IMG/VR virus record: IMGVR_UViG_3300042867_001762
DNA from: an uncultured virus (IMG/VR IMGVR_UViG_3300042867_001762)
Lineage: Duplodnaviria > Heunggongvirae > Uroviricota > Caudoviricetes
DNA length: 64,000 bases
Direction: 5' to 3' (one strand)
In this document: positions 1,932 through 40,597 of the stretch, piece by piece
How the letters are laid out: the number at the start of each line of letters is the position of its first letter
How positions within the stretch are numbered: the stretch's first letter is position 1
The notes under the pieces: generated by a model
What the model saw: the letters and a program-made list of their open reading frames with translations, nothing else
Told to the model about the DNA's origin: nothing
The model's database searches: none
Program-made: the position numbers and the translations under genes

Positions 1932-2168
1932 TCAGGCATCATTGCGACCAATGCTTGCTCGCAGCGTATCGATCTCTGCAACGAGAGGCGCGACATGATG
2001 ATCATATAGCTGCGACATATTATCCCAAATGGCACGGCGCTCAGCCGGCGACAGGGTGCCGAACTGACCTGGATCATCGGCCACTAGGCCAAAAGAATGA
2101 TCTGTGGTCATGCACATACTAAAAATGATTTCTTCCCGACTCTTCAATTGCAACCTCCCGCTGTGCAC
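1932..2168 (-). CDS. hypothetical protein
   Basis: ORF in the co-directional array; start uncertain. Confidence 0.5.
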   Translation of the reverse strand: MHSGRLQLKSREEIIFSMCMTTDHSFGLVADDPGQFGTLSPAERRAIWDNMSQLYDHHVAPLVAEIDTLRASIGRNDA

Positions 2169-2437
2169 AGCTTTTTACGCGGCACTCTGATGTACATCGA
2201 GGCGCTTCTCTCTGGGGCATGATACGCATCTTCAAGAAAACCAATGCCGCGATACCACTTGTACGACATGTTGTTCTGAAATAGTACAACATGCGGATCA
2301 TTTGCAAAAGACTCATTAACATATATGCGCGGGTCGATTTGCTCTTCTGTGCGGAAATGCCGGCACATGATGCCGTATGCGCGATGCCAGTCTTCTGCGC
2401 CGATTGCAATAATCATTTCTGCGTTAATCAGCTTCAC
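2144..2437 (-). CDS. MKL-family paralog
   Basis: MKLINAEMIIAIGAEDWHRAYGIMCRHF...YKWYRGIGF. Confidence 0.8.
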   Translation of the reverse strand: MKLINAEMIIAIGAEDWHRAYGIMCRHFRTEEQIDPRIYVNESFANDPHVVLFQNNMSYKWYRGIGFLEDAYHAPERSASMYIRVPRKKLCTAGGCN

Positions 2438-2705
2438 GCCTATATATCCTTATCGAGGGGCCCTGTACGTTTTTCTGAAAAGATATAAGTCCAAAGCCTT
2501 CGGAAGAATCCCAGTAGGCATAGGTTCCACCAATGATTATGGATATGCTCTCGTCTGGCCCTCGGGCATCATCTACGAACGGCTTCTTAATTATACCTAA
2601 GACCGCCTCCTCAGAAAGCCCAACAGCTCGGCATAACATGCGCGTCGCAGAATCCCAATTGCTCTGCCGGAAAGCCTCGCGCATCAAGTAGGATTCAAGC
2701 TTCAA
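2424..2705 (-). CDS. MKL-family paralog
   Basis: MKLESYLMREAFRQSNWDSA...YWDSSEGF. Confidence 0.8.
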   Translation of the reverse strand: MKLESYLMREAFRQSNWDSATRMLCRAVGLSEEAVLGIIKKPFVDDARGPDESISIIIGGTYAYWDSSEGFGLISFQKNVQGPSIRIYRREAD

Positions 2706-2708
2706 GCG

Positions 2709-3041
2709 CTAGCCCTCTGCCTCAGCAATTACTCGCCGAAGATAATTTATTTCTGCCTGCATGGTTTGTCGCGTGCCGGGAGAATCCACATCCAAAATGC
2801 GATCCTCTAGATCGCTCAGGGTAGACTTGCATGCTCGCAGCAGAGCAGGGGCGGCAGCAATAAGGCGAGCGTCTTCTTCCTCGCCGACATAACCGCCCCA
2901 GGCTTCACCGTCGCTACAGCCCATTGTACAGATGGTTATATGAAAACCATCGGGATGGCGCTGATAGACTTGGATATAAGGCGTGCCGTCTTCTGCCTTG
3001 TCGGTGTGCACTTGCCATGGGCCCGGAGTAAATTTTCCCAT
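2709..3041 (-). CDS. phage TPGPW...ARLIAAAP family hypothetical protein
   Basis: MGKFTPGPW...DARLIAAAPALL; GGAG RBS upstream. Confidence 0.75.
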   Translation of the reverse strand: MGKFTPGPWQVHTDKAEDGTPYIQVYQRHPDGFHITICTMGCSDGEAWGGYVGEEEDARLIAAAPALLRACKSTLSDLEDRILDVDSPGTRQTMQAEINYLRRVIAEAEG

Positions 3042-3042
3042 G

Positions 3043-3345
3043 CTACTCCTTATCAGCCGGGGCATCGAACGCAGCTAGCGCCTCTGCAAGTTCGGCATGA
3101 GCTTTGCGATGACCTTTGGCAAGCACCTTTAATCCAAGATTAGGCCAGTCGGTATCTGGCGCATCAAGGTAGCTTGGCAAGATGGCAAGCTCAGATAGAG
3201 CGCTGAGCGCGGCCTTTCGCAGCGCTCGCAGTTTGACCGCTTGCTCTTCCCAAGCCCTGCGAGAAGCGCAACCAGGACATTCGGGCGCAGCCCAATCATA
3301 GTCCTGATCGCACGCCTCGCAGAACTTCGTATCCATATATCTCAT
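3043..3345 (-). CDS. hypothetical Zn-ribbon protein
   Basis: CEAC...CPGC. Confidence 0.6.
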   Translation of the reverse strand: MRYMDTKFCEACDQDYDWAAPECPGCASRRAWEEQAVKLRALRKAALSALSELAILPSYLDAPDTDWPNLGLKVLAKGHRKAHAELAEALAAFDAPADKE

Positions 3346-3773
3346 GCAGGATCAACCTGCTGCACGGCCAGCTTGACCGTGACATGGCCACGCTCACGGA
3401 TAGGAGGAAGGCTGGCCATCATAGTGCGCAGGCTCTCCTCGCAAGTAGCAATCTCTGGAAAATTTTCCAGCAGCGTATCGCGAGCATTCTTGTCCATGGC
3501 GATTGCATCATGCATACAACTAAGCAGCACGGACGTCGCTGCCTCACGCTGGAAGCCCATACGCTGGATAAAGAGTGCCATGACCGCAAGATGAGGAAGG
3601 CGGGCGGTAGGTGCCTTCTCGGTATCTTCGCCGATCTTCACGGCACCCTGAACTCGGACAGTGAAGTCGACAACATGATTGCCTGGCGACACGGCATCCC
3701 GTGCGTCGTCAGCCTTGAGACGCGAGAGGGCAACGAGTTCAATAGGAGAAAGACCACCAATGCTCTGAACCAT
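3342..3773 (-). CDS. hypothetical protein
   Basis: First gene after the motif at 3821; GGAG RBS. Confidence 0.7.
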   Translation of the reverse strand: MVQSIGGLSPIELVALSRLKADDARDAVSPGNHVVDFTVRVQGAVKIGEDTEKAPTARLPHLAVMALFIQRMGFQREAATSVLLSCMHDAIAMDKNARDTLLENFPEIATCEESLRTMMASLPPIRERGHVTVKLAVQQVDPA

Positions 3774-4717: not shown

Positions 4718-4999
4718 TTAGGGCCGGGGCGTCTGCCTCATCTTATTATAATCAGCTAGAACGCGGCGGTATGAATCTAGGTGATCATCAATACAATTCA
4801 TTGCTACGACAAGAGGGATACTGCTATAGTCAGGCGGGTCATCCCCGTACCGCAAAATAATAGATCCACCTAGAACAGCGCCTGCGCAAAACCAGCCATC
4901 TACTTCCCTGCCTTCTGCAGTGTAATGGCCCGTGAAGCAACACCGGTCGCAGTCGTGAGAGAAGCGCGGGCGCGTCTCAGCGCTAGACATTGTCGCCAT
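4718..4999 (-). CDS. hypothetical Cys/His-rich protein
   Basis: PRFSHDCDRCCF; stop codon lies inside a motif copy. Confidence 0.6.
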   Translation of the reverse strand: MATMSSAETRPRFSHDCDRCCFTGHYTAEGREVDGWFCAGAVLGGSIILRYGDDPPDYSSIPLVVAMNCIDDHLDSYRRVLADYNKMRQTPRP

Positions 5000-5282
5000 A
5001 GCTCTCCTCTAGCCTTATATGGCCTTTGAACATGTAGGTGTATTTGGTTTCATCCCGCACAAAGCCATCATCGGCGGACCACAGCGCAAAGCCGCCTTCT
5101 AAAAAATAGATCGCCAGCACTGGCTCGCTAGGCATCATGCTTATTCCGACACCTTCCTTGCTCGAGATGACATAGCGACGCAAGTCGGCATCTATAGAGA
5201 AGTGTCGCAGGATAACGCCTGCGGCAGCGCGAATATCTCTCGCATCCAGTGCAAGTCGGATCTCGGCCTCATCTAGCTTCAT
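4983..5282 (-). CDS. MKL-family paralog
   Basis: MKLDEAEIRLALDARDIRAAAGVILRHF...WSADDGF; ATGA overlap. Confidence 0.8.
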   Translation of the reverse strand: MKLDEAEIRLALDARDIRAAAGVILRHFSIDADLRRYVISSKEGVGISMMPSEPVLAIYFLEGGFALWSADDGFVRDETKYTYMFKGHIRLEESYGDNV

Positions 5283-5566
5283 GCGTTTGTATCCCACCAC
5301 TTCTTGCCGATGCGGATTTGAAACGCAGTATAAGTCCACGCATAGCCTGTGCTAATAAAGCCGTGATCACTACTCCAGCGCACAACCCTCTGCCAATCAG
5401 ACGCGCAGACGATTGCACGATTATCATTGTCATCCCATATAATATCTGGAAATGTTTTAGTGTGAGACAAATGCTTCATGCCAGAGTACTTGAGCATCAA
5501 TCGCTTAACCGCCTCCCAGTCAGAAGCAGCAATTGCAATGCTCATTTCCGCGTGATCGAGCTTCAT
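5279..5566 (-). CDS. MKL-family paralog
   Basis: MKLDHAEMSIAIAASDWEAV...WSSDHGF. Confidence 0.8.
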   Translation of the reverse strand: MKLDHAEMSIAIAASDWEAVKRLMLKYSGMKHLSHTKTFPDIIWDDNDNRAIVCASDWQRVVRWSSDHGFISTGYAWTYTAFQIRIGKKWWDTNA

Positions 5567-8594: not shown

Positions 8595-8668
8595 TGGTTG
8601 GGGAACTAGGACTCGAACCTAGATAAACGGAATCAGAATCCGTTGTCCTGCCATTGGACGATTCCCCA
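8595..8668 (-). tRNA. tRNA-Gln(CTG)
   Basis: TGGGGAA...ACGGA-TTCTGAT-TCCGT...CTAGG-TTCGAGT-CCTAG-TTCCCCA-A-CCA. Confidence 0.95.
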
Positions 8669-8776: not shown

Positions 8777-8862
8777 TGGTGCCCCGAGTCGGACTCGAAC
8801 CGACAAACTCTTGCGAGCGACAGATTTTAAATCTGCTGTGTAAACCATTCCACCATCAGGGC
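8777..8862 (-). tRNA. tRNA-Leu(TAA)
   Basis: GCAGA-TTTAAAA-TCTGT, long variable arm, GGTTCGAGTCC, ACCA end. Confidence 0.95.
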
Positions 8863-11207: not shown

Positions 11208-11606
11208 TCAGTCGTACCAGCAATACAGCCCTTTGTTGCTGCACATACGCTCATCTGCCTGATAAAACAACGCATCAAAAGCAGAGCGCTCCTCGTCCGT
11301 AGGCTGCGCCTTCAGCTCTACGCCTTCAATTGACAACCGGTAGTCATAACGATCTGGACCGACTGCGTACCCATGCGCTGTGAAACGGGGGTGCGCCGTA
11401 AGAAATTTTGCAAATTCATCAATACTAGGACCATCATTATGGCGCTCGAATGGATCAGCATGACCGGCTGCCAGTAGGATGTTCAGCCTGCCAACGTCCA
11501 GTCCGGTAAAGCTCTCAATGCCGCCCAGCTCATAGGAAGAAGAGATACCAAGAATAGCGTCGCGTTCAGCCGCAGCAATAATACGCTGTGCACGATAAAG
11601 CTTCAT
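11208..11606 (-). CDS. hypothetical protein
   Basis: HGYAVGPDRYDYRLSIEG...CWYD. Confidence 0.7.
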   Translation of the reverse strand: MKLYRAQRIIAAAERDAILGISSSYELGGIESFTGLDVGRLNILLAAGHADPFERHNDGPSIDEFAKFLTAHPRFTAHGYAVGPDRYDYRLSIEGVELKAQPTDEERSAFDALFYQADERMCSNKGLYCWYD

Positions 11607-11890
11607 AGCGCAGGTTCCTTTACGTAAACATCATCTCGAACTAATATTTTGTGCGAGCCGTCAAAAGAAAAAACGCCGCGATCTACTATGAACTGGAAAT
11701 CATCCCAGCAAAAGCTGCCACTAGGAGTCTTGAGGCGGACCTCTACGATCTGCCAAGGAGCGCGCACCCAGCGCCAGTCCATATCGCGACGCGCATCAAT
11801 CTCCGGGAAACGCTGCGAAAAAATGTTTATGATTGCGGATGCATTCCGTTCTCGCACGGCTTCGAGCATCAGGTAGCTGTCTAGCTTCAT
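11603..11890 (-). CDS. MKL-family paralog
   Basis: MKLDSYLMLEAVRERNASAIINIFSQRF. Confidence 0.75.
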   Translation of the reverse strand: MKLDSYLMLEAVRERNASAIINIFSQRFPEIDARRDMDWRWVRAPWQIVEVRLKTPSGSFCWDDFQFIVDRGVFSFDGSHKILVRDDVYVKEPAL

Positions 11891-12225
11891 ACTATCATGC
11901 CTATCTTGATATAAAGATCTCGCGGTGCATAGAAGATGATTTTGGACTCCTTCGTAGTGCATCCCCAGCATTTAAATTCATCTTCATTGTTCCAGCCATA
12001 ATAATAAGATTTGGAGCCGACCGCTTTCTCTGCGCATCCCTTGACATAGGCTATCACTACATAGTCCGCGACGTCGCCATCGGCGGACAGACGAAAGCGC
12101 GAGTTCCTCGCAACAAGCGCAGCCACCAGCCCAGAGAGTCCGAAGTGCCGGTCTAGGACCATCGCTGCTTCGTCCCAACGAGCATCCATCATGGCGCTCT
12201 TTATCTCATAAGAATCTAGCTTCAT
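11887..12225 (-). CDS. MKL-family paralog
   Basis: MKLDSYEIKSAMMDARWDEAAMVLDRHFG. Confidence 0.8.
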   Translation of the reverse strand: MKLDSYEIKSAMMDARWDEAAMVLDRHFGLSGLVAALVARNSRFRLSADGDVADYVVIAYVKGCAEKAVGSKSYYYGWNNEDEFKCWGCTTKESKIIFYAPRDLYIKIGMIV

Positions 12226-12307
12226 TGCGAAGGCGTCCTATTTAAAATAGCGGCGGGGACCGTCGCCGCACAGGATCGGGCGCGTCCGGTTTTAGGCCCG
12301 GCCCGCG

Positions 12308-12613
12308 CTAAGAAAATAACCTCTTAACAACATAAGGGTTGGTTGTTCCTTCGTCATCATCTGAATCCTCAAGCATACGGTACGCCAGCTCTAATGAGCT
12401 TTGTGTAATCTTGGCAAGATTAGGAGAGAAGTAGTCAGTATTAATGACTGACCCGCCGATGCTTATCTTTTCACCGAACTGGTATATTCTAAATCCAGGC
12501 TTAACGACCCAGGCATATAGTATGCCGCCAGGGTCCAATCTATCAAAAGCATCATCGTATTCGCCAATAACTTCTTGCAAGTGCTCCCTGATTTCCCACT
12601 CTCTAATCTTCAT
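12308..12613 (-). CDS. hypothetical protein (MK..EW.IRE subgroup)
   Basis: MKIREWEIREHL, resembles 15983-16342. Confidence 0.65.
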   Translation of the reverse strand: MKIREWEIREHLQEVIGEYDDAFDRLDPGGILYAWVVKPGFRIYQFGEKISIGGSVINTDYFSPNLAKITQSSLELAYRMLEDSDDDEGTTNPYVVKRLFS

Positions 12614-12884
12614 CGCAGTACTCTAGAGCGACATGAGGACTGTACCTAGCCTCATCCACGTAGTATGTATAAAAACTAGAAAGCTCATCCCAGCGCCAAA
12701 CAGTACGCCTATAATAAAGTGTCATGCTCCGGGGCGCGTGCAATGAGCCATACCTCTGTACATTAAAAGTATCTAGCGGCGGGAGCCGGTCTATTATGTC
12801 AAAGTGACGCATCAAGCAATAAACCGCGGCCCGCCAGTCACGAGCGCGTATCGCTTCCAGCATTTCGTAGTTTTCAATCTTCAC
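12603..12884 (-). CDS. MKL-family paralog
   Basis: MKIENYEMLEAIRARDWRAAVYCLMRHFDI; close relative of the adjacent gene. Confidence 0.8.
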   Translation of the reverse strand: MKIENYEMLEAIRARDWRAAVYCLMRHFDIIDRLPPLDTFNVQRYGSLHAPRSMTLYYRRTVWRWDELSSFYTYYVDEARYSPHVALEYCDED

Positions 12885-13158
12885 AGGGATATTCTTCGCA
12901 ATAGGTTATAGTCGCTTTAGGTGCGCTAGGTTCTGCCAAGTCCTCTGCATAAAACCCAGCAAAATCATCCCAGTGCCAAGCAGTGGTGCCATAATAAATT
13001 GACAAGGACCAAGAGGTCCAATCAATTGCTTTAAACGAAAATGTATTTAGCGGCGGGAGAACATCCACTATATCAAAGTGACGGATTAAGCAATCGGCGG
13101 CGCGTCGCCAGTCACCAGCACGCAGCGCTGCCTCTATCTCGTATTCGTCGAGCTTCAA
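12874..13158 (-). CDS. MKL-family paralog
   Basis: MKLDEYEIEAALRAGDWRRAADCLIRHFDI...WDDFAGF. Confidence 0.8.
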   Translation of the reverse strand: MKLDEYEIEAALRAGDWRRAADCLIRHFDIVDVLPPLNTFSFKAIDWTSWSLSIYYGTTAWHWDDFAGFYAEDLAEPSAPKATITYCEEYPCED

Positions 13159-13528: not shown

Positions 13529-13606
13529 TCACAAAAAGATTGCATAGCAAGCCGCGGCGTCTCTGGCCCGAAAGACTTGTAGCATCTTGTAATGATGGAG
13601 CTTCAT
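13529..13606 (-). pseudogene. truncated MKL-family paralog (25 aa)
   Basis: MKLHHYKMLQVFRARDAAACYAIFL then stop, abutting an opposite-strand CxxC gene stub. Confidence 0.6.
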
Positions 13607-13607
13607 C

Positions 13608-13866
13608 TCATATCCTTAGAGTAATGGCGCAAGATGTTCTGCGATCAAACTTGGAAAAAGACTTACAGAAGCCGGTTGTCGGCGACCAGGTATAATATCC
13701 TGGCCCATCCCAGATATGAATCTTGTACCCATGAAAACTGGTAGGATGAATCTCGATGAACAGATCTTGAATGCTTAGACAGAAATGGTCTTGTAAGATT
13801 TGCGCAGGCCTTTGCTGTGTCAGCCTGCTGGAAAGCTTCCAGCATTTGATAGTGGTCGAATTTCAT
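13608..13866 (-). pseudogene. MKL-family paralog with one-base frameshift
   Basis: Removing one T from 13799-13801 gives MKFDHYQMLEAFQQADTAKACAILQDHF...YYTWSPTTGF, restoring both family motifs. Confidence 0.7.
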
Positions 13867-13919: not shown

Positions 13920-14222
13920 CTAGTACTTGAACAAGAACCTAACAGATTTTATAGGGCACTTACTGAAGTCTGCCCAGTCGGGATGACCCCGCGGCGCATA
14001 ATTTGAATCACGGAAAAGCCCGCCCCTACAGGTAATGAAAGCTGAGTTTACAAAGTAAACCACTAGCTGCGGCTGCGGATGCCCGTCCGTATGAAACTGT
14101 TTTGCCTGGAGTGCTTCGCCTATGCGATGACCTAGGCCAAAGTGATCGAGTACGAGGCGCAGTGCGTAATGCCTATCGGCAGCACCCATGGCTTCGACAA
14201 AAGCGTATGACTCTAGTTTCAT
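13920..14222 (-). CDS. MKL-family paralog
   Basis: MKLESYAFVEAMGAADRHYALRLVLDHFG. Confidence 0.8.
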   Translation of the reverse strand: MKLESYAFVEAMGAADRHYALRLVLDHFGLGHRIGEALQAKQFHTDGHPQPQLVVYFVNSAFITCRGGLFRDSNYAPRGHPDWADFSKCPIKSVRFLFKY

Positions 14223-14223: not shown

Positions 14224-14517
14224 CTATTCCGCTGGCACGGTAATGACCGCCGCAATAGGCGAACGAGTGCCTGGACTAGATGCAACCGTGCTAGCGAAAT
14301 AAGTTCTCACGCTTCCTGCCGATCCTATCCACCATCTATATGTTGCGCCATCTTTATGTATGGCAACCTCTGATACGCTGCGCGAAAAAAATACCTTAAT
14401 ATCTTCTGGGCGGATTTCTTCTGCGTCCAGCCCGAAGTGTCCGGCAAGCAGTCTTACTGCAAGCGGGTAATTGCGCTCGCTAAAAGCAATACGCATACCG
14501 AAGTTGTGTAGCTTCAT
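14224..14517 (-). CDS. MKL-family paralog
   Basis: MKLHNFGMRIAFSERNYPLAVRLLAGHFG. Confidence 0.8.
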   Translation of the reverse strand: MKLHNFGMRIAFSERNYPLAVRLLAGHFGLDAEEIRPEDIKVFFSRSVSEVAIHKDGATYRWWIGSAGSVRTYFASTVASSPGTRSPIAAVITVPAE

Positions 14518-14538: not shown

Positions 14539-14850
14539 TCAGGATCGGGGCGACCCGGCTTTAGGCCCGGCGGCCTCTGCGGGCGGCGCATAAATATCTA
14601 CAACGATGCTGTTCTCGGGATAAAGCTTACGCCATTTGGGCCAGCTTTCAAAGCCTAGTGACTTGCGCCAGGAGTAGATGCGATTACCGTGATTGATCTC
14701 TATCTCCGGCTGGAAGCCATTGTGACGCAGCAGATACAACCGATAGTCCGCTGGCATAGGGATATTAAAGTGCGCAGTGAGGGCTGCAATGGCCGCTGGC
14801 CAATCCTCGCGCTCGAATGCTTCACTGATACAGTAATGGTCCAGCTTCAT
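14539..14850 (-). CDS. MKL-family paralog
   Basis: MKLDHYCISEAFEREDWPAAIAALTAHF...YSWRKSLGF; C-terminal tail encoded by a motif copy. Confidence 0.8.
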   Translation of the reverse strand: MKLDHYCISEAFEREDWPAAIAALTAHFNIPMPADYRLYLLRHNGFQPEIEINHGNRIYSWRKSLGFESWPKWRKLYPENSIVVDIYAPPAEAAGPKAGSPRS

Positions 14851-15098
14851 CTAGCGAATATCCTGACATAGCTGCCGGGTACTGATGGCCTGCTCCAAAA
14901 CCCATCGTATTCTTCCCAGACATAGCGATTGCCATCAAGAATAATATTAACTTCCAGAGGTGCGACGGTAGCTTTTGTCAGGCCAACATTAGCGATAGTG
15001 CCGAATGGTTTGCCAAAATATTCTGACATGACCTTGATTGCCCTCGCCCAGTCTTCGGTTTCAAAAGCGAGAAACATTTCCGCAGCGGCCAGCTTCAT
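14847..15098 (-). CDS. MKL-family paralog
   Basis: MKLAAAEMFLAFETEDWARAIKVMSEYFG...YVWEEYDGF. Confidence 0.8.
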   Translation of the reverse strand: MKLAAAEMFLAFETEDWARAIKVMSEYFGKPFGTIANVGLTKATVAPLEVNIILDGNRYVWEEYDGFWSRPSVPGSYVRIFAR

Positions 15099-27637: not shown

Positions 27638-27664
27638 CGCTCAGTTCCTTGGTTGAGGCACTGT

Positions 27665-27762
27665 CTGCCCGCCCCGGAATCGAACCGGGACCGAGGAGAA
27701 TCCCTTGCCGGACTCTTTCAAGGCGGCTCTCCCAGCTACGGCAAGTAGCGCGAGAACGGGCA
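27665..27762 (-). ncRNA. tRNA-like element with non-standard body
   Basis: Acceptor TGCCCGT/GCGGGCA, T-arm CCCGG-TTCGATT-CCGGG; extended D-region hairpin; no clean anticodon arm; no CCA. Confidence 0.55.
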
Positions 27763-27794
27763 TGGGTGGGTGTAAGTTTTGTAAAAGGTTTTTT

Positions 27795-28358
27795 ATGCCA
27801 CGTTACAAAGCACCGCTGCTAGATAGAGAGTGCGTTTATTGCAAGGCGCACTTCAAGGCAAAAGCCAAGGACGTTGCACGCGGCGGTGGCAAGTATTGTT
27901 CCCGCGACTGTCTAGCGTTAGATCGAAAACCAAAGTCCACAGGCGAGCAACCTCCTAATGCTACATGCGCATATTGCGGAGTGGAATTCTTCAGAAAGAA
28001 ATTCTCTGAGGCAAAGAGCGGCTTGAGATTCTGCTGCAAGGATCACAGAGACAAAGGGCAACAGCTAGAGCACGGCATCAAAGCCATATGGCCGGATCAC
28101 TATGGCAAGCACAAAGTTGATGGAACTTATGTAGAGCGGGTCGACCCTGATACCAGAACCAGTTATCGCAAAACCGCAAAGGAATCTCTAGAACCTAAAT
28201 GCAGCAAATGCGGATATGACAAATACCCTGCCATACTACAGGTTCATCATAAAGACAGCAATAGGGACAATAACCATATCTCTAACCTAGAGATGCTATG
28301 TCCGCGCTGCCACTCCATTCACCATCTTGTTGCCGAAAGACAAAATGAACAACTCTAA
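27795..28358 (+). CDS. HNH endonuclease with Zn-finger repeats
   Basis: CxxC/YCSxxC repeats; LQVHHKDSNRDNNHISNLEMLCPRCHSIHH. Confidence 0.9.
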   Translation: MPRYKAPLLDRECVYCKAHFKAKAKDVARGGGKYCSRDCLALDRKPKSTGEQPPNATCAYCGVEFFRKKFSEAKSGLRFCCKDHRDKGQQLEHGIKAIWPDHYGKHKVDGTYVERVDPDTRTSYRKTAKESLEPKCSKCGYDKYPAILQVHHKDSNRDNNHISNLEMLCPRCHSIHHLVAERQNEQL

Positions 28359-28863
28359 TGTAGACCAGGTATGTTTGAACTGCGGCGGCGTATTCTCTGC
28401 CAGAAAAGCAGACGTCAAGCGTGGCCGGGCAAAGTTCTGCTGCCAATCCTGTGGCACAGTATATAGCAACAAGAACAAACCAAAGAAGCTGCTATCTTGC
28501 GCCTGTGCCTGGTGCCAAACTCCGCTACTGCGTAAAGCCCATAAGACGAGCAAGTCCGGCCTCTATTTTTGCTCAATAGAACATCAAGGGCTTTTCAAGC
28601 GCCAGGAGAACGGGCACAGCGAGATATGGCCGGAGCACTATACCGGACAGACCTCTTCGTACAGAGAGGTGGCATTCAGAGTGCAGGACAATAAATGCGC
28701 GGTCTGCGGATACTGCGAGCACAAAGAAGTCTTGCATGTTCATCACATTGATCACGACAGATCAAACAACGCTGTGAGTAACTTGCAAATACTTTGTCCT
28801 AATTGCCACGAGGAACATCACTACTTGACGGGTACCGGAAGATACGGCGGCAAACGCAAGTAA
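28345..28863 (+). CDS. HNH endonuclease with Zn-finger repeats
   Basis: LHVHHIDHDRSNNAVSNLQILCPNCHEEHH; paralog of the upstream gene. Confidence 0.9.
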   Translation: MNNSNVDQVCLNCGGVFSARKADVKRGRAKFCCQSCGTVYSNKNKPKKLLSCACAWCQTPLLRKAHKTSKSGLYFCSIEHQGLFKRQENGHSEIWPEHYTGQTSSYREVAFRVQDNKCAVCGYCEHKEVLHVHHIDHDRSNNAVSNLQILCPNCHEEHHYLTGTGRYGGKRK

Positions 28864-30404: not shown

Positions 30405-30674
30405 CTAGCGAATCCAGATGTCTGCTGATGTCCGTTCTACGGGAGAGTGCTGGCGCTCCCAGCAGTGGAGTCCTTTTTCCTCGCACCAAGCATATATCCA
30501 ATGGGGCGAAAAGATCTTTACTTGGAAAGTCTTCACGTAGGACCCGCCGCGCATTACGTCCATCCTATACTCAGGCGGCATGTCTACCCCGTAATGGCGT
30601 GCGAGGGCGGCAACAGCAGCGGACCAATCTTTACGGGATAGCGCTTCTCGAATCTCGTAGTCAGCCAGCTTCAC
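30405..30674 (-). CDS. MKL-family paralog
   Basis: (M)KLADYEIREALSRKDWSAAVAALARHYG...YAWCEEKGL. Confidence 0.8.
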   Translation of the reverse strand: MKLADYEIREALSRKDWSAAVAALARHYGVDMPPEYRMDVMRGGSYVKTFQVKIFSPHWIYAWCEEKGLHCWERQHSPVERTSADIWIR

Positions 30675-31929: not shown

Positions 31930-31999
31930 AACCGGCAGCAGGGCTCGCACCTGCATCTCCCGCAGACAATGCGGGGCTTTGCTACTAAGCTATGCCGAT
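31930..31999 (-). tRNA. degenerate tRNA-like gene, anticodon ambiguous (TGT or truncated GTC)
   Basis: ATCGGCA/TGCCGGT acceptor, GCTT/AAGC D-stem, CCCGC-ATTGTCT-GCGGG, GCAGG-TGCGAGC-CCTGC; no CCA. Confidence 0.6.
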
Positions 32000-32040: not shown

Positions 32041-32457
32041 TCACTTCAGCCGAGCAACAACATCGGCCAAGCGATCAGCGAGGCGGTTGACTTCCCCACG
32101 GGCAGCATCAGTACCGGCCTGGGAATCACCGCCCACCTTTACCGAGAGGCGGTCGGCATTTTCCCGGAGGAAAGCCACGCCCTTATCGGTAGCGATGAGA
32201 TCGAGAACAATCCCCACGAAGTGCGGGGCGTAAAGAGTAACCGGGAACTTGGTATTCACTCCAAAGATGGAGATCGCACCCTTCTCCGAAACCTTTGCCG
32301 AGTAGCCACGAGACGCTGCCTTGGCAGCCTCAGCGGCATCAGCACGGGCCTTTTCAGCGGCTACCGCAGCCTCAGCAGCCTGCAAACGTCGCAGGAGATC
32401 CGCAACATCGGCATTGGCGTTATTGGCAACAGCGACCGTATTCGTCTTGACGAGCAT
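32041..32457 (-). CDS. SEKGA-family protein, copy 1
   Basis: Ala-rich coil + KVSEKGAISIFGVNTKFPVTLYAPH. Confidence 0.8.
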   Translation of the reverse strand: MLVKTNTVAVANNANADVADLLRRLQAAEAAVAAEKARADAAEAAKAASRGYSAKVSEKGAISIFGVNTKFPVTLYAPHFVGIVLDLIATDKGVAFLRENADRLSVKVGGDSQAGTDAARGEVNRLADRLADVVARLK

Positions 32458-32621: not shown

Positions 32622-32915
32622 TCATGAGTTCTTGAGCTTGTACTTGCTCCAAACCGTAGCGCTTACGATCTTTACTCTGCTGTAATCCCGGTCAGTGTTC
32701 CAGTCAGGCGCAGGAAAATAAAAATTACCTTCATACCATTCATAGGGATCTGAGCCAACCCAAGCCCTAATGCCGTAGCCTATATCATGTTCGGTCTGTA
32801 TGATGAGCTGCACACCTGGTAAGTTTATGCCGAAATGTTGCAGCAGCAGGCGCACCGCTTCTTCGTACTGGCCTTCGTAGATGGCGCTTTGCAGTACATA
32901 GGATTCCAGCTTCAT
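32622..32915 (-). CDS. MKL-family paralog
   Basis: MKLESYVLQSAIYEGQYEEAVRLLLQHFG; close relative of 33830-34117. Confidence 0.8.
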   Translation of the reverse strand: MKLESYVLQSAIYEGQYEEAVRLLLQHFGINLPGVQLIIQTEHDIGYGIRAWVGSDPYEWYEGNFYFPAPDWNTDRDYSRVKIVSATVWSKYKLKNS

Positions 32916-32996: not shown

Positions 32997-33401
32997 TTAT
33001 CCTTTGCTGCCCGGCCCGGTACGGCGCTTCTTGCCATTACGGTACCAAAGCTGAGTGCCATCCGGATAAACGGCAGCAGGCCCGCCATCCCGATGAATCT
33101 CGCCATTCCGGTACCAAAGCTGACTACCATCTGGATACAATACAGCGGGACCTTTATCCCGGTGAAGCTCACCATTCTGGTACCAATATTGACTACCATC
33201 AGGGCATATAATAGCAGGTCCATCATCACGATGAAGCTTGTTATTTCGGCACCACTCCTGAGTACCATCCGGCTCTATAACAGCAGGCCCATCTTCCCGG
33301 TGAAGCTCACCATTATCATTTAGAAAGACATACTTTCCTTGATAAAACTTTCCACCAGCTTCAAGGATAGAATCTATTGCACCCCAGATATCAAGTTTCA
33401 T
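32997..33401 (-). CDS. HRDDGPA-repeat protein
   Basis: MKLDIWGAIDSILEAGG + four 22-aa repeats. Confidence 0.85.
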   Translation of the reverse strand: MKLDIWGAIDSILEAGGKFYQGKYVFLNDNGELHREDGPAVIEPDGTQEWCRNNKLHRDDGPAIICPDGSQYWYQNGELHRDKGPAVLYPDGSQLWYRNGEIHRDGGPAAVYPDGTQLWYRNGKKRRTGPGSKG

Positions 33402-33652
33402 TTGTCTGCCCGCTGGAGTCGACCATCCAGGTACCAATGTTTTTTACCATCTGAATAGACGACAGCCGGGCCGTCTTCCCGGTGAAGCTTATCGTTGCGC
33501 AACCAAAACTGATCGCCATTAGGATATATGACAGCTGGGCCGTCTTCCCGATGATAGTGACCTTTGTCATTTACAAGGCAATACTTATCGATAAAAAACT
33601 TACCACCGGCATCGAGGAGAGAAGATACGGCTTCCCAGGTATCTAGTTTCAC
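33398..33652 (-). CDS. HRDDGPA-repeat protein
   Basis: (M)KLDTWEAVSSLLDAGG + two repeats. Confidence 0.85.
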   Translation of the reverse strand: MKLDTWEAVSSLLDAGGKFFIDKYCLVNDKGHYHREDGPAVIYPNGDQFWLRNDKLHREDGPAVVYSDGKKHWYLDGRLQRADK

Positions 33653-33843
33653 TTGCTGTCCATTTTTGCAAACAACCAAGGGCGGATCATCTGACATATG
33701 CGGCAACTAAGTGGATGCTCGTGTTGCGGATCAGCCCAGTCGGGAATCCTGCCTACGCCATAATGCTCAATCAGAATGGGTAGTATGCGGGAGAAGTCTC
33801 CGCTGTCTACTGCATCCTGTACTGCCCACTCAGAGATTTTCAT
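33649..33843 (-). CDS. MKL-family paralog, short
   Basis: MKISEWAVQDAVDSGDFSRILPILIEHYG. Confidence 0.65.
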   Translation of the reverse strand: MKISEWAVQDAVDSGDFSRILPILIEHYGVGRIPDWADPQHEHPLSCRICQMIRPWLFAKMDSK

Positions 33844-34117
33844 TTTTGCTTCGTATCCATACCGTTGCGATTACTACTTCTGCGCGCAATGGCGTTCCTC
33901 TCACATAAGAGCTTGCAGAGAAAAAGCTACCCTCGTACCATTCAAAGTACTTAGTGCTTACCCATACGTAAATGCCATAACATGAATCGGTTGCTGCCTG
34001 TATGTTCAGCTGTGCATCCGGTAAGTTTATGCCAAAATGTTGCAGCAGACCTCGGACTGCTTCTTCGTGCCGCCCTTCATAGATAGCGTTTTGTAGTACA
34101 TAGGATTCCAGCTTCAT
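33830..34117 (-). CDS. MKL-family paralog
   Basis: MKLESYVLQNAIYEGRHEEAVRGLLQHFG. Confidence 0.8.
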   Translation of the reverse strand: MKLESYVLQNAIYEGRHEEAVRGLLQHFGINLPDAQLNIQAATDSCYGIYVWVSTKYFEWYEGSFFSASSYVRGTPLRAEVVIATVWIRSKNENL

Positions 34118-34371
34118 AGCGGAAACCATATCTGTACTAGCGGGGGATCTTGCACTTGTGGCAGTCGGCTTTTGCGAAAGCCGTGTGCGGCTGTCCAGCC
34201 ATACCACTCCGCATTATAGTAAATCATCTCCATAGTAGGAGATACGCGCCTTATTATTTGCAAATCCCCCGGTACTTCTCCAAGCCGGAAGTAGTGAAAC
34301 AAGACTTGCACGGCCCCTGTATTGTTGCCGGACTCTAGGGCGTGAATGATTGCAGACCGGTCTAGCTTCAT
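34114..34371 (-). CDS. MKL-family paralog
   Basis: MKLDRSAIIHALESGNNTGAVQVLFHYF...YGWTAAHGF. Confidence 0.8.
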   Translation of the reverse strand: MKLDRSAIIHALESGNNTGAVQVLFHYFRLGEVPGDLQIIRRVSPTMEMIYYNAEWYGWTAAHGFRKSRLPQVQDPPLVQIWFPL

Positions 34372-34471: not shown

Positions 34472-34753
34472 TCATGTCGGCTTCCTCTTCCGCAACCAGA
34501 TTACAGCACGGGTAGCTGGTAGGCTGAAACTAGAAGACAGTCCAGTCCTGAATCCCATGCGCTCGCCCCACTCGTACCAGTGCCCAGCAGTGTAAATAAT
34601 TATATGATCCCCATGAACTTCGCTGGGATTTACTCTTACTTCTGCACCTGTGGGCAGATCACTGAGGTTGAAGTTCGCTAGCAGGGCATTGCATGCGCCT
34701 CGCATATCGTTGGAAGCAAGCCGTTCAGCTACTAAGATAGACTGTAGCTTCAT
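34472..34753 (-). CDS. MKL-family paralog
   Basis: MKLQSILVAERLASNDMRGACNALLANF...YEWGERMGF. Confidence 0.8.
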   Translation of the reverse strand: MKLQSILVAERLASNDMRGACNALLANFNLSDLPTGAEVRVNPSEVHGDHIIIYTAGHWYEWGERMGFRTGLSSSFSLPATRAVIWLRKRKPT

Positions 34754-35441: not shown

Positions 35442-35732
35442 CTATTTCCAAAGAATGATGCTTTCTATGCGGCTCGGTGCTACGTCGCTGCCTAGGGAAT
35501 AAGGATGCACGCCCCGGTCAAAGCCGGACTCAGAACTCCACTCATAGAAGTCGTCGCCGCACCAGAATAGCAGGCGTCTTTCTCTTTCAAAAGGCGGCAT
35601 GTTTTTGCCGATTACGGTAATCGGTATTTCTACCGGATCAGGAAAGCCATAGTAGGTCGCAAGCACGCGCACAGCGGTGGCCGTATCTCCGGCCTCCAGC
35701 GCCTCGCGCATAGCATACGACTCTAGCTTCAT
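35442..35732 (-). CDS. MKL-family paralog
   Basis: MKLESYAMREALEAGDTATAVRVLATYYG...YEWSSESGF. Confidence 0.8.
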   Translation of the reverse strand: MKLESYAMREALEAGDTATAVRVLATYYGFPDPVEIPITVIGKNMPPFERERRLLFWCGDDFYEWSSESGFDRGVHPYSLGSDVAPSRIESIILWK

Positions 35733-35995
35733 CTTGGCAACTCTGATATGATTCCGCAATCAAAGATGGAAACAGTAGGACTTGTTCTACTGCCACCACC
35801 ACGGCAATAGATATAGCGGGAGCCATCTTGATAAATAACCACTCGGCCCCAGCGCCAGTTGCCGGGACTAGATGTATCTATAGCCGCCCTCTCTCTTGGG
35901 AGCCGTATGCTTAGGTGCTGCGCAACTAGCGTCACCATGCCGTCATAATCACGGACAGCAAATGCTTCGTCCAGTTGGAGGTCAAGTAGCTTCAT
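35729..35995 (-). CDS. MKL-family paralog
   Basis: MKLLDLQLDEAFAVRDYDGMVTLVAQHL. Confidence 0.75.
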   Translation of the reverse strand: MKLLDLQLDEAFAVRDYDGMVTLVAQHLSIRLPRERAAIDTSSPGNWRWGRVVIYQDGSRYIYCRGGGSRTSPTVSIFDCGIISELPR

Positions 35996-35997: not shown

Positions 35998-36246
35998 CTA
36001 GAAGATGGTACCTATATTATCTAGCGGTGCTTTGAAATCAATAACTGAAGACGATCCATTAGCGTAAAAATAATAGCAATTGTTGCCATAGCTAATCACA
36101 AGCAGGCTCCACGCATCTCCCTTGTCGCGCATGTCGCGGACATTGTTTGGTAGAGGGATACCAAAGTAGTGGGCTATGGCGGCAATCATGCCTGTCTTAT
36201 CGCCGGCGTCATCTAGTTGTGCCAGTAACAATAGAACAAGTTTCAC
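35998..36246 (-). CDS. MKL-family paralog
   Basis: (M)KLVLLLLAQLDDAGDKTGMIAAIAHYFG. Confidence 0.75.
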   Translation of the reverse strand: MKLVLLLLAQLDDAGDKTGMIAAIAHYFGIPLPNNVRDMRDKGDAWSLLVISYGNNCYYFYANGSSSVIDFKAPLDNIGTIF

Positions 36247-36517
36247 TACAGAAATCCGGGGCAAACATAATGAGGTTTATCCCATTACGAGAGTAAAGCT
36301 TACTGTCATTGAAGTAATCAAGGCCGTTCCAGCAGGAAGATCCGCTAGATGTTCTTAGTCGCAGCATTCCTAGCGGTTCCCACGGACAAATCTTTATTTG
36401 CCATTGCTCATCCTTCCGGCGGGCTATGTCTTCAAAATGCACTGCGAACAAATCAAGGATTGTTTTTATGTCCTTGTTTGCAACAGCGTTTCGCAAAGCG
36501 AAAGCGTCCAGTTTCAT
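36209..36517 (-). CDS. MKL-family paralog
   Basis: MKLDAFALRNAVANKDIKTILDLFAVHF. Confidence 0.75.
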   Translation of the reverse strand: MKLDAFALRNAVANKDIKTILDLFAVHFEDIARRKDEQWQIKICPWEPLGMLRLRTSSGSSCWNGLDYFNDSKLYSRNGINLIMFAPDFCSETCSIVTGTTR

Positions 36518-36722: not shown

Positions 36723-36932
36723 TCAGTCTAAACTTACCTCGCGCTGGTCGCCTAGTACGTTAACCTCAATAAAGCGCAGAGGCAACATGCGTCTGCGAAC
36801 AAAGTAGGCTAGACCGGATAAGAAGTATGCGGTTATTTGCGCGCGGGTTTGCGTGGTAAACCTTTCCGGTGGAATGCTTCCTCGCAGGAGATTGCGGTTA
36901 TCGTATACTAGATAGTGACTGATTAGCTTCAT
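36723..36932 (-). CDS. MKL/VLG-family small protein
   Basis: MKLISHYLVYD...PLRFIEVNVLGDQREV. Confidence 0.7.
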   Translation of the reverse strand: MKLISHYLVYDNRNLLRGSIPPERFTTQTRAQITAYFLSGLAYFVRRRMLPLRFIEVNVLGDQREVSLD

Positions 36933-37178: not shown

Positions 37179-37376
37179 TCATGATCTAAAGCCCTCTGGA
37201 GTTATGTCGCGCTCATCGCCTAGCACGCTTATTTCATACAGTCGCAGCGGACGATCCTGAAACCATTGCAGTCTATGGTATTCTAAAATTGCCTCTTCGC
37301 GGGTATGTGAGCCGTGTACTTGCGAGTAGCGCAAGCCGCTGTCGGTGCGTATCTGATAAAAGCTAATCAGCTTCAT
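37179..37376 (-). CDS. MKL/VLG-family small protein
   Basis: MKLISFYQI...PLRLYEISVLGDERDI. Confidence 0.7.
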   Translation of the reverse strand: MKLISFYQIRTDSGLRYSQVHGSHTREEAILEYHRLQWFQDRPLRLYEISVLGDERDITPEGFRS

Positions 37377-37569
37377 GCCGGTCCAGATCTAGAACATGCA
37401 GCTCACCTAATACATCTACCGCAGCTATGTGCAGCGGGGCAAGATGCCTATAGATAACGCTATAAACATCCCGCATATGTAGCATGTGATGAGAGGACGT
37501 GTCGCTGCCAAATCTCAGCACAAACTTGCGATCCCTATCTACCAGTAGGTATTCAGCAAATAGTTTCAT
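37363..37569 (-). CDS. MKL/VLG-family small protein
   Basis: MKLFAEYLLVD...PLHIAAVDVLGELHVL. Confidence 0.7.
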   Translation of the reverse strand: MKLFAEYLLVDRDRKFVLRFGSDTSSHHMLHMRDVYSVIYRHLAPLHIAAVDVLGELHVLDLDRHEAD

Positions 37570-38549: not shown

Positions 38550-38912
38550 CTAGTAGTCATCACCATCATCCTGATCAAAGTCTACGCGGATGGAGTAATA
38601 GCCATTAGAGCTGCCGCTCCAGCGGATTGTGACATAGCCTTTGACCGTAGCAAAGCGGTAAAAGGTCCAGCCTTCGCTGCCGTATTCCGAGTCTCGCTCC
38701 TTGAACACCACCTCTGCAATAGAGAGTGGCGGTCCAATAAGATCCGAGATTTCGCCATCGACCTGCTCGATGCCAACGCTCTCGCAGCATGACTGATGGT
38801 GGCGCATCCGATAAACGGTACCATCATCGCAATGAAAGCGGACGTCATCATCCTTGATACCGGTAATATCGGTAAGCGTTTTTCCACGGATAGGCAGGAT
38901 ATCAGCGGTCAT
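38550..38912 (-). CDS. conserved phage hypothetical protein, copy 1
   Basis: HHQSCCESV...WTFYRFATVKGYVTIRWSGSSNGYYS. Confidence 0.75.
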   Translation of the reverse strand: MTADILPIRGKTLTDITGIKDDDVRFHCDDGTVYRMRHHQSCCESVGIEQVDGEISDLIGPPLSIAEVVFKERDSEYGSEGWTFYRFATVKGYVTIRWSGSSNGYYSIRVDFDQDDGDDY

Positions 38913-39444
38913 GGGGGACTCCTTGGTAGATTAGGAATAGGCGGGCAGCGTGCCGAGGCCAGCTTTGTCTATGAATTTCGGATGAATACTACAGAGTCGC
39001 ATTCTTTGTGAGCTGGACGAGTGTGGTCATACGTCTCCCTCGAGTGCGTGCCGTGCTCTTTCTTCTTCACGGATGCGCCTCTTTTCAGCCAGAACACTTC
39101 GCCACGTCTCTGTGATGGTCACACCAACCGTGCGATCCAACAGCCAGAGACAGGCGATGACGAAGATCCAGTAGCTCGAGATCATCGTTTCTCCGGCCAG
39201 GGCTGCCGTGACGCGGCCTACTACAGCGCCGGCAAGAAGGGCAGCAATAATGGTGAGCATCATGCTTCCTGCGGGAGGATATAGCGCTGCACGTCCTCGA
39301 TGAGTACGTCATAGGTGGCATCAAACGCGAACGGGTCAAAGTCGCCCCCGTTATTGAAGGCTGTGAAAAAGCGCTCATCCGTCTCGCGGAAGCCATGCAT
39401 CAGTACGACGTTCAGAAAAAGATCAGACATTCGCTTGGCGCTGT

Positions 39445-39831
39445 TCATATTGCTCCTTGTTGGTGGCGTTCGGGGCACCGCTCAGGATCGGGCGGGTCCG
39501 GCTTTAGGGCGGGCGGGGCTGGCACTCTCTGTCCAGCCCTGTACCATTCCTGAGTACCATCTGGATAGATAATAGCTGGTCCGTTATCCCGGTGACGCTT
39601 GCCATTCCGGCACCAGTATTGAGTACCATCTGGATAGATAATAGCTGGCCCATCACCCCGGTGAAGCCCGCCATCCTGGTACCAACACTGAGTACCATCT
39701 GGATATATGGCAGCGGGTCCGTCATCCCGGTGAAGCCGGCCCCTGCTGTTGCGAACGCAGTAATACCCGTTTTTGTAAACACCACCGGCTTCAATGATTG
39801 AAGAAATAGTTTCCCAGGTATCAAGTTTCAT
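39445..39831 (-). CDS. HRDDGPA-repeat protein
   Basis: MKLDTWETISSIIEAGG + three repeats; tail reads through a motif copy. Confidence 0.85.
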   Translation of the reverse strand: MKLDTWETISSIIEAGGVYKNGYYCVRNSRGRLHRDDGPAAIYPDGTQCWYQDGGLHRGDGPAIIYPDGTQYWCRNGKRHRDNGPAIIYPDGTQEWYRAGQRVPAPPALKPDPPDPERCPERHQQGAI

Positions 39832-39846
39832 GATTTTCTATCTTGA

Positions 39847-40320
39847 TTATTCCCAGGGGGCCTTGGCTGCCAGGCAGGCCTCGACAGTCAGATCTGTCTC
39901 CCAGCGGGCCAACATACTACGAATAGCATGCAACGGTACGCCATGAGAGTTGCGGCGGGCACACTCTTCAGGATCTCGCGCCCATGCGGTTGCAGGCTCA
40001 ATAAACTGTACGCGATATCCACATCGCTCCGCGTTACGAACATACTCGCGGGCTTCCCAAGCCTGCGTGTTAGTATTGTCAATAATAATATGGGAAGTTC
40101 CTGCATCCATAGCAGCAACCGCACGGGCCAGATTAGCCGCATGGTGTTTGCCGAGGAGCTTGCCGTCAAAGCGGTACTCCCCATCCACCATGAAGAAATC
40201 ATCGGTGGAGAAGACCGGAGCGGGAGAAACTCCGGGAATGTTTGCAAGGGCGTGTGCGAGGTGGCTCTTGCCGCTACCGGGCAGGCCACGCATGATCGTG
40301 AGGGTACGGCTGCTCAGCAT
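39847..40320 (-). CDS. P-loop kinase, N4BP2/polynucleotide-kinase-like, copy 1
   Basis: IMRGLPGSGKS, STDDFF, IIDNTN, RNSHGVP. Confidence 0.85.
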   Translation of the reverse strand: MLSSRTLTIMRGLPGSGKSHLAHALANIPGVSPAPVFSTDDFFMVDGEYRFDGKLLGKHHAANLARAVAAMDAGTSHIIIDNTNTQAWEAREYVRNAERCGYRVQFIEPATAWARDPEECARRNSHGVPLHAIRSMLARWETDLTVEACLAAKAPWE

Positions 40321-40333
40321 GATTGCTCCTGAT

Positions 40334-40597
40334 TTATTTTGTGGTAAAGATTTGTATATCTTCGCCTATCGGAATGCCTAGCGGTCCCTGGGTAAAGCCG
40401 GATCGGCCTGACCAACCGTATTCAGCGCCGCCGCGTGGCATGCAGATCCAGATCTCTGGGTACTGAGAAAAGCCTCTATTGATTCTTGTAGGTCTGCCAA
40501 CCAGGGAGATACCGAAGGTAGATTCCATAATAGAAATAACCTCCGGCCAGTCTTCCTTAGCAAATGCGACCCGCATCTCCCAGTCATCCAGCTTCAC
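40334..40597 (-). CDS. MKL-family paralog
   Basis: MKLDDWEMRVAFAKEDWPEVISIMESTFG...YGWSGRSGF. Confidence 0.8.
   Translation of the reverse strand: MKLDDWEMRVAFAKEDWPEVISIMESTFGISLVGRPTRINRGFSQYPEIWICMPRGGAEYGWSGRSGFTQGPLGIPIGEDIQIFTTK

Follow-up and report, generated by a model that had tools for sequence, protein, structure and literature searches.

A diversified family of small proteins with a common predicted fold in a freshwater jumbo phage

We describe a family of small proteins encoded in the virus record IMGVR_UViG_3300042867_001762. The family segment was examined within a stretch of 64,000 nt of this record (the window), which is gene-dense and has almost all of its coding on the minus strand. 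A complete near-identical record (G001) of 371,675 bp carries direct terminal repeats, and CheckV puts its completeness at 100%. The source is an uncultured freshwater jumbo phage with a genome of about 372 kb, and the stretch is present in lake-water metagenomes from several studies. The family segment spans ~73 kb, about a fifth of the phage genome, and is studded with members of one family that is absent from catalogues, interspersed with other genes. This is a new family and, on the predicted models, probably a new fold within a known kind of jumbo-phage expansion.

Family members in the window

Open reading frames (ORFs) beginning with MK[LIFMV] were listed (n=73, 65 of them on the minus strand), and 30 were aligned as one family. 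A full-length hidden Markov model (HMM) of these 30 hand-picked ORFs was built, as the initial annotation of the window had proposed, and run against 960 six-frame ORFs of at least 40 aa. At E≤10 it recovers 30 of 30 seeds together with the ORF 27362-27640 and a remnant at 13611-13862 and no others. ORF 27362-27640 was not a seed (E 5.3e-9) and begins with MNSHHVKM, without the MKL start. The remnant is a frame-shifted C-terminal piece overlapping the truncated ORF 13663-13866. An HMM of the N-terminal module (the first 31 alignment columns, searched in all frames of at least 15 aa) adds a 28-aa fragment at 13532-13615. In total the window holds 31 family ORFs and two decayed pieces, which agrees with the count of about 33 paralogs given initially. 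G001 has 46 family matches, all at 3.9-76.9 kb; 33 of them are in the part equivalent to the window and 13 lie beyond the gene of a MoxR-like ATPase. This gene (542-1705) is within the family segment, and members flank it on both sides in G001.

All members are on the minus strand, and E values are those of the full-length HMM unless stated. The first members in the window are 2144-2437 (97 aa, E 4.4e-22; E 1.4e-11 for the N-terminal part in the leave-one-out comparison below) and 2424-2705 (93 aa, E 3.2e-18), whose external relative P0006 is 91% identical. They are followed by 4983-5282 (99 aa, E 2.3e-14) and 5279-5566 (95 aa, E 2.6e-15). ORF 11603-11890 (95 aa, E 1.1e-14) belongs to a divergent subgroup with 36209-36517. 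ORF 11887-12225 (112 aa, E 1e-19) has insertions and is the first gene after the promoter-like motif at 12271. Then come 12603-12884 (93 aa, E 1.2e-22) and its old tandem duplicate 12874-13158 (94 aa, E 4.2e-23; 42% identity). A few decayed copies are present, as had been noticed. The fragment at 13532-13615 is the N-terminal module alone in a 28-aa open frame (N-module HMM E 2.6e-5), and the copy at 13611-13866 is split over two frames (E 5.3e-13 and 8.6e-5), with a truncated 67-aa ORF at 13663-13866 and its C-terminal part in the other frame (13611-13862). Next are 13920-14222 (100 aa, E 2e-17), 14224-14517 (97 aa, E 1.1e-16), which is the first gene after the motif at 14540, and 14539-14850 (103 aa, E 9.5e-25), which was modelled (model 1). 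The array continues with 14847-15098 (83 aa, E 3.9e-19), 15095-15385 (96 aa, E 4.8e-22), 15382-15669 (95 aa, E 1.7e-18), 16329-16619 (96 aa, E 2.3e-19) and 16626-16895 (89 aa, E 6.8e-19).

Further along are the isolated 22095-22406 (103 aa, E 9.8e-14), 26252-26551 (99 aa, E 4.8e-12), which is the first gene after the motif at 26569, the atypical 27362-27640 and 30405-30674 (89 aa, E 5.2e-24). ORF 32622-32915 (97 aa, E 4e-23) has an orthologue on the related contig L016. The short member 33649-33843 (64 aa, E 1.5e-9) is truncated in its C-terminal part and matches model positions 1-53 only. It is followed by 33830-34117 (95 aa, E 5.5e-25), 34114-34371 (85 aa, E 1.5e-19), 34472-34753 (93 aa, E 5.7e-24), 35442-35732 (96 aa, E 3e-22), 35729-35995 (88 aa, E 1.6e-17) and two divergent members, 35998-36246 (82 aa, E 5.6e-12) and 36209-36517 (102 aa, E 3.4e-13), the latter also modelled (model 2). 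The last one is 40334-40597 (87 aa, E 2.5e-20). Clusters of members are thus present as initially annotated, but single members also occur outside them, at 22.1, 26.3, 27.4, 30.4 and 40.3 kb. The lengths range from 64 to 112 aa, and the 85-110 aa first given is too narrow.

Other small genes accompany the arrays. The ORFs 12308-12613 and 15983-16342, in or beside them, have a first helix MK[LI]xEWxIRE in common with the family. A second expanded family is found at 32997-33652, 39445-39831 and 41638-44451. It comprises ten genes of 23-aa (69-nt) repeats of the type HRDDGPAxIYPDGTQxWYRNG, which match MORN-variant/DUF6745 models (E 7.5e-11 to 7.9e-4) and all start with MKLDxWEAISSLLxAGG.

Conservation pattern and the MKL start

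Leave-one-out HMMs were compared with 20 shuffles of each omitted sequence, with E calculated for a database of 1000. Judged in this way, the N-terminus is clearly homologous across the members and the remainder is much more divergent, because in the N-terminal part 30 of 30 members outscore all their shuffles (E 8.5e-15 to 3.7e-3), whereas in the C-terminal part E<0.01 is reached by just 9 of the 30, and another count, of members scoring lower than their best shuffle, is 8 of the 30. The division into a conserved N-terminal part and a divergent remainder, proposed from the beginning, is thus borne out.

The conserved sites were taken from an alignment of 144 sequences, namely one window member and 143 metagenomic relatives. 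They are L3, Y6, I/M8, A11, L/F12, D16, W17, A20, L24, H27 and F28 in the N-terminal part and I50, I52, Y59, W61, G66, F67, I84, I86 and W87 in the C-terminal part. The Y-x-W-x(3-4)-G-F motif noticed in the window paralogs is found in the relatives as well (W61 97%, Y59 84%, G66 81%, F67 84%). A20 is conserved at 85%, F28 at 84% and I86 at 59%; position 87 is aromatic (W 50%, Y 27%, F 8%). The polar conserved residues are D16 (72%) and H27 (60%), and the start residues M1, K2 and L3 reach 96%, 98% and 93%. Most of the conserved sites hold hydrophobic or aromatic residues, and they are found in helices and strands alike. They follow the spacing i, i+3/4, i+7 in the helices and alternate in the strands (I50/I52, I84/I86). 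Entropy and indels are maximal at residues 31-48 and 68-83. Since hydrophobic conserved sites with helical or strand spacing run along the whole chain, the conservation has the pattern of a buried fold core common to the helices and the sheet, not of a docking surface. No membrane segment or signal peptide is apparent in the members, the longest hydrophobic run being 8 residues, and their pI is 4.3 to 9.5.

The codons of the MKL start were also counted. Leu3 is encoded by CTA in 11, CTG in 9, CTT in 3 and CTC in 3 window members and Lys2 by AAG in 23 and AAA in 7. The Leu3 codon varies synonymously, therefore selection is on the residue. The start MK[LIVFM] is also present in the ten MORN-like genes (MKLDxWE) and about 24 other minus-strand ORFs; the non-coding strand has 8 ORFs starting in this way. 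With a position matrix of residues 2-13 the family ranks first, and without K2 and L3 the scores of the MORN-like N-termini are below zero. Their match to the N-module HMM has E about 3. An N-terminal tag shared with the MORN-like family was thus rejected, as by the matrix and the N-module HMM the similarity ends at MKL(D)xW. The only other ORFs picked by the matrix are 12308-12613 and 15983-16342, in which helix 1 is common with the family and the rest is not. Glu is found at position 7 in only 28% of the 144 sequences.

Predicted fold

Model 1 was obtained with AlphaFold2 for the member 14539-14850 using the alignment of the 30 paralogs. Its mean predicted local distance difference test score (pLDDT) is 90.8 and its predicted template modelling score (pTM) is 0.80. 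Helices are formed by residues 2-13 and 17-28 and strands by residues 37-42, 49-54, 57-62, 66-71 and 82-88. Helix 1 is confident and integral to the fold (block pLDDT 91-97). The last ~13 residues of this member (…AEAAGPKAGSPRS) are encoded by the promoter-like motif of the next unit (14539-14588), that is, the ORF runs into a regulatory element, and this tail is modelled at low confidence. Model 2 was obtained with AlphaFold for 36209-36517, from the most divergent subgroup, using an alignment of 87 sequences. It has the same architecture with an extra C-terminal strand (pLDDT 79.4, pTM 0.67), that is, two helices, one 4-residue helix and six strands.

The predicted folds of a central and a divergent member thus agree, as expected if the fold is shared. 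For the family, the prediction is a single compact domain built from two helices and five strands, for which no structural relative was detected. The pTM values, together with the entropy and indel peaks at 31-48 and 68-83, point to a single scaffold with variable surfaces. This does not fit the earlier idea of a detachable docking module joined to a recognition domain, as both models form one compact domain and conservation of the core type is found in both parts.

Comparison with known families and structures

The family had not been recognised in the initial annotation, and Pfam, PHROGs, NCBIfam and PADLOC give no usable match. None of the 30 members has a Pfam match above threshold. In PHROGs the 30 members have four unrelated single matches (E 0.012-0.094), and in NCBIfam and PADLOC single weak matches only. 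Foldseek gives no match at E≤0.001 in the PDB or in BFVD. The top structural neighbours of the two models, which are insignificant, are the PepSY-like 4exr and 2gu3 and the cystatin-like latexin 2bo9, with a helix packed over an antiparallel sheet.

One known superfamily needs more detailed consideration. The member 14539-14850 matches the SUKH (SMI1/KNR4) model PF09346 with E 9.3e-5 and 23.5 bits, below the gathering score of 25.4, and PF14568 with E 0.0096. It is the sole member with such a sub-threshold match, triggered by its "...G-x-x-hP-x-x-Y...NG" stretch. A language-model feature search with it gives short SUKH clusters (86-93 aa) at 0.90-0.92, and the same search with a second member gives no usable match. 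A match to any SUKH model is seen in just one of the 30 window members and one of the 144 relatives. Profiles of 30 and 144 sequences find no SUKH chain among PDB sequences, the best matches (E 0.05-0.06) being unrelated helical stretches, and no SUKH chain is among the matches listed by Foldseek and VIA-align. As defined in PMC3113570, the SUKH fold has four helices and six strands in a split sheet, and the same paper describes tandem arrays of paralogs, lineage-specific expansions and occurrence in DNA viruses. The superfamily (SMI1/KNR4, Syd, US22) resembles the family in being small alpha+beta proteins with tandem divergent paralogs in DNA viruses, and its poly-immunity arrays share the logic of many binders against many targets. 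However, the family has 2 helices and 5-6 strands instead of 4 and 6, no toxin genes are linked to it and the match is sub-threshold in 1 of 144 relatives. A Pfam scan of 70 neighbouring ORFs finds no polymorphic-toxin architecture, and two phage-type HNH genes (27705-28863, plus strand) adjoin just 1 of 31 members. We thus rejected an assignment of the family to SUKH, given the sub-threshold match of a single member, the lack of a PDB SUKH chain among the matches and the different element count. A very remote SUKH relationship is possible.

Two other systems were compared. T4 internal proteins carry a shared N-terminal capsid-targeting sequence and come from hypervariable loci, and some of them are anti-restriction factors. 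They are similar to the family in that a short constant N-terminus stands on differing small proteins of a large phage. In the family, however, the conserved stretch is ~30 residues long and, by prediction, belongs to the fold; a homologous body comes after it, and no cleavage motif is conserved. F-box families are likewise rich in paralogs whose helical N-terminal part is better conserved than the more variable remainder, but the F-box is an independent domain with separate recognition domains, whereas the family is predicted to be one domain of ~90 aa.

The closest precedent in print for a large expansion of a single small protein in a jumbo phage is a zinc-ribbon family with roughly 35 copies in Bacillus phage G, a lineage-specific expansion (PMC7824862). 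Similar to the family, dozens of diverged copies of a small protein are found there in one region of a genome of >200 kb, with a role presumed to be regulatory or host-directed. The phage studied here has the features of such an expansion, with a genome of 371,675 bp, 46 matches at 3.9-76.9 kb and internal identities of 25-57%. Three differences from the phage G family are seen: our family has two helices and five strands (predicted) and no metal-binding cysteines, its members are interspersed over ~73 kb and not placed in one array, and by sequence comparison its paralogs pre-date the separation from related phages. Literature searches on paralog families of jumbo phages, on phage MORN repeats and on multigene families with anti-defence roles gave no description of the family.

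A profile search of 1.84 billion representatives gives 253 clusters (50% identity) at E≤1e-3 and 62 at E≤1e-10. Among the best 150 of the 253 clusters, 143 are 83-132 aa long, and 122 of these 143 begin with MKL. The other 7 are Ig/PKD/CHU_C proteins of 1299-2315 aa, which match with the hairpin part only in 5-11 summed weak stretches and were regarded as spurious. The cluster members examined are all named "hypothetical protein". A weak search among proteins of 232-2000 aa found no fused forms. GenBank phages give no match in tblastn with 2 of the 31 members, and viral contigs give none for three single-member queries or for a strict DNA pattern. With a looser DNA pattern, which covers part of the family only, 2 of 19 loci are real in metagenome contigs and 0 of 20 in bacterial and archaeal genomes, where three weak partial matches within a Marinifilum protein of ~530 aa were discounted. 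Contigs from four lake and river runs are short and mostly identical to the window, with joints at motif copies that are probably assembly ambiguities; they were not used. One run has a contig omitting 13370-13831 (decayed copies), with 34 letters on one side, which was not used as evidence either.

Age and selection

The initial annotation described close duplicates and a birth-and-death evolution. The three pairs are reciprocal best internal matches and physical neighbours, but their identities are only 42% (12603/12874), 43% (16329/16626) and 57% (32622/33830), so that they are not close. The members were also compared with external relatives, that is, metagenomic proteins and related loci, most of them full-length, with near-identical ones (at least 95%) set aside. 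All 30 members have a closer external than internal relative (external identity 26-94%, best internal paralog 25-57%). As 30 of 30 members are closer to an external relative, the sequence comparison indicates that the paralogs pre-date the divergence of the related phages, each kept as its own lineage.

Only one orthologue pair is unsaturated at synonymous sites, 32622-32915 and its counterpart on L016 (79% identity, dS 0.98, dN/dS 0.11). Purifying selection acts on this one measurable pair; neighbouring non-family genes have dN/dS of 0.075 (MoxR) to 0.18. With this ratio and the closer external relatives of 30 of 30 members, a fast birth-and-death process was overstated, while the description of the family as phage-borne and strongly diversified stands. 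The related contig L001 carries 12 members in 15.9 kb, and its MoxR protein is 93% identical. Between its members and their best match in the window the identity is just 23-48%, whereas the shared non-family genes, in a rearranged order, are 64-93% identical. On two more related contigs, L004 and L016, there are 9 members within 8.6 kb and 3 within 2.2 kb, respectively. The composition of the family differs between related phages.

Gene packing and the promoter-like motif

By their coordinates, 15 of the 31 members have an overlap with the gene upstream, which in 9 cases is the 4-nt ATGA, and 5 more are separated from that gene by a gap of ≤6 nt. A motif CCTAAA-N13-GATCYTG on the coding strand (CA[AG]GATC-N13-TTTAGG on the plus strand) is found in the window (1859-63587) at 56 sites in gene orientation and at 2 in the opposite one, for example at 12271-12296, 14540-14565 and 58272-58297. 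The start codon is usually 17-50 nt downstream. The motifs bounding the family units (1859-41537, minus strand) start at 1859, 3821, 4697, 6415, 8179, 10448, 12271, 14540, 21408, 26569, 30365, 32567, 39483 and 41512. In G001 the numbers in the two orientations are 67 and 1, a reversed control gives 0, and the motif is confined to one co-oriented arc of ~144 kb (350.8-371.5 kb and 2.9-123 kb). Because of its position and strand bias, we suggest that the motif probably serves as a promoter that is specific to the phage and belongs to one temporal class. The beta subunit of RNA polymerase (PF00562) has no match in G001.

The motif occurs in two variants. The one with a GC-rich spacer is found every 1-9 kb across the family region, up to about 53.6 kb. 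As it occurs only at these intervals, the members are in multi-gene units. Between 52.3 and 63.6 kb, in the part with 64% GC, nearly every gene is preceded by the variant with an AT-rich spacer. Within the same phage genome the G+C climbs from about 0.51 to 0.64-0.67 near window position 54000. This climb coincides with the switch of the motif variant, and the genes there are very short. At 52329-52692 the motif stands in six tandem copies, spaced by 59-81 nt, with no ORF of at least 50 aa behind them; they might be drivers of small RNAs or a regulatory array.

Proposed role of the family

We suggest, with a rough probability of 0.45, that the family is a set of soluble intracellular binders, each with a variable surface that fits a partner of its own, most likely a host protein. 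The set would have arisen long ago by the lineage-specific expansion of a small protein with a single domain, and each member of ~90 aa is predicted to be soluble and cytoplasmic. In each of them two N-terminal helices (MKLxxYxIxxAxxxxDWxxAxxxLxxHFG) would pack on a five-stranded antiparallel sheet with the Y-x-W-x4-G-F hairpin and the I-x-I-W last strand. The conserved residues would form the core, and the variable ones, at about 31-48 and 68-83, would be exposed at the sheet surface and in the loops. The genes would be co-transcribed in tight, often overlapping units behind the phage-specific promoter-like motif. The variable surface of each paralog would then bind a different partner stoichiometrically. 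With host proteins as the most likely partners, the set would act in the take-over of the host or in counter-defence; a role against defence systems or one directed at the host is plausible. Together the members may form a standing repertoire, not a rapidly turning over one. The evidence points to many distinct jobs rather than redundancy, because 30 of 30 members have their own closer external relative and the measured orthologue pair is under purifying selection.

Several observations weigh against this proposal. The estimate of constraint comes from one orthologue pair alone. The only unsaturated paralog pair, 12603/12874 (the others are saturated), has dS 0.65 and dN/dS 0.70, or 0.87 in the C-terminal part, which is compatible equally with relaxed or diversifying selection. 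The fold was predicted from alignments of the family itself, and a conserved surface patch for a common partner is possible within a single domain. PADLOC finds no match to a defence, anti-defence or toxin-antitoxin model, and the structure searches find no structural neighbour pointing to an activity. M1, K2 and L3 exceed most core residues in conservation, which is poorly explained by a pure fold core.

The initial annotation favoured a library of adaptors, with the N-terminal hairpin docking all members on one phage or host hub, for example a protease or the MoxR ATPase, and the remainder recruiting targets. The N-terminal part is indeed far more conserved than the rest, with near-invariant M1, K2 and L3 and the conserved polar D16 (72%) and H27 (60%), and the MoxR-like gene at 542-1705 is inside the family segment with members on both sides. 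We nevertheless find such a library unlikely, as both models are one compact domain (pTM 0.80 and 0.67), W61, the top conserved residue after MKL, sits in the supposedly variable part, and the conserved positions are mostly hydrophobic with helical and strand periodicity. Highly improbable is its version in which MKL and the helical hairpin are the common handle by which a protease or a MoxR-type AAA+ ATPase engages ~46 target binders, an F-box-like library on a fold unseen in solved structures. An alternative use of the N-terminus is that of an address tag, when MKL with or without helix 1 serves as a signal for capsid loading, sorting or translation initiation, outside the function of the protein. 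We retain this explanation, quite unlikely as it is, because the invariance of MKL (96%, 98% and 93% in the 144 relatives) is unexplained; unrelated window genes share the MK[LIVFM] start, 12308-12613 and 15983-16342 share helix 1, and the synonymous variation of Leu3 shows selection on the residue. However, the MORN-like N-termini score negative beyond K2 and L3 (N-module HMM E about 3), in the model helix 1 belongs to the fold (block pLDDT 91-97), 27362-27640 has no MKL, and Glu7, a possible cleavage site, is present in only 28%.

It is very unlikely, in our view, that the family is a divergent SUKH poly-immunity set neutralising nucleases or other toxins, such as abortive-infection effectors or toxins of competitors. 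The matches of 14539-14850 to PF09346 and PF14568 and its feature-search scores of 0.90-0.92 are in its favour, together with the tandem arrays, expansions and viral occurrence of SUKH genes (PMC3113570). They are outweighed by the sub-gathering score in 1 of 30 members and 1 of 144 relatives, the negative result with the second member, the absence of a SUKH chain among the PDB matches, models with 2 helices and 5-6 strands against 4 and 6, and the lack of linked polymorphic-toxin genes; only 27362-27640 adjoins the two HNH genes. The members might also bind one another or build one phage-made assembly, with their diversity reflecting the blocks of a hetero-oligomer. Small domains with exposed sheet edges often pair, and the neighbours are co-transcribed and translationally coupled; for SUKH arrays, tandem paralogs in one complex have been raised as a possibility (PMC3113570). 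But the differently composed sets of related phages fit a fixed assembly poorly and the surfaces are the most variable parts, which makes this arrangement highly unlikely.

If the family is indeed a set of host-directed binders, it would offer a panel of natural inhibitors ready for use and would indicate which host systems matter for infection in freshwater bacteria. Structure searches with the confident models gave no match, either among solved structures or among predicted viral ones. The family adds to an emerging picture of jumbo phages in which a single small scaffold is time and again expanded into a large repertoire; large expansions of a single small protein in jumbo phages are already in print (PMC7824862).

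Other features of the window

Two adjacent HNH endonuclease genes (27705-28358 and 28327-28863) are on the plus strand, opposite to nearly all genes, and beside the atypical member 27362-27640. They are probably homing endonucleases. Two genes of the AAA_33 type (zeta-toxin-like kinase fold), at 39847-40320 and 61347-61814, are 70% identical in DNA. Four genes (32041-32457, 53057-53527, 54458-54901 and 57649-58206) form a group with a conserved stretch that is rich in Ala (direct-repeat families D9, D14 and D16).

By eye, 15666-15986 and 22608-22928 resemble each other, with the pattern YW...G...WPD...L...IAC. The tandem ORFs 36723-36932, 37179-37376 and 37363-37569 (65-69 aa), which have an MKL(I/F)xxY start and a ...VLGD/E... 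end, also look by eye like another paralog group.

Five tRNAs are on the coding strand amid the accessory genes: Gln-CTG (8595-8668), Leu-TAA (8777-8862), Ser-ACT (19269-19356), Met-CAT (26016-26093) and Thr-TGT (31930-31999). The region of tRNA-Gln has very high depth in four of four metagenome runs, as is expected from its conservation with cellular tRNAs.

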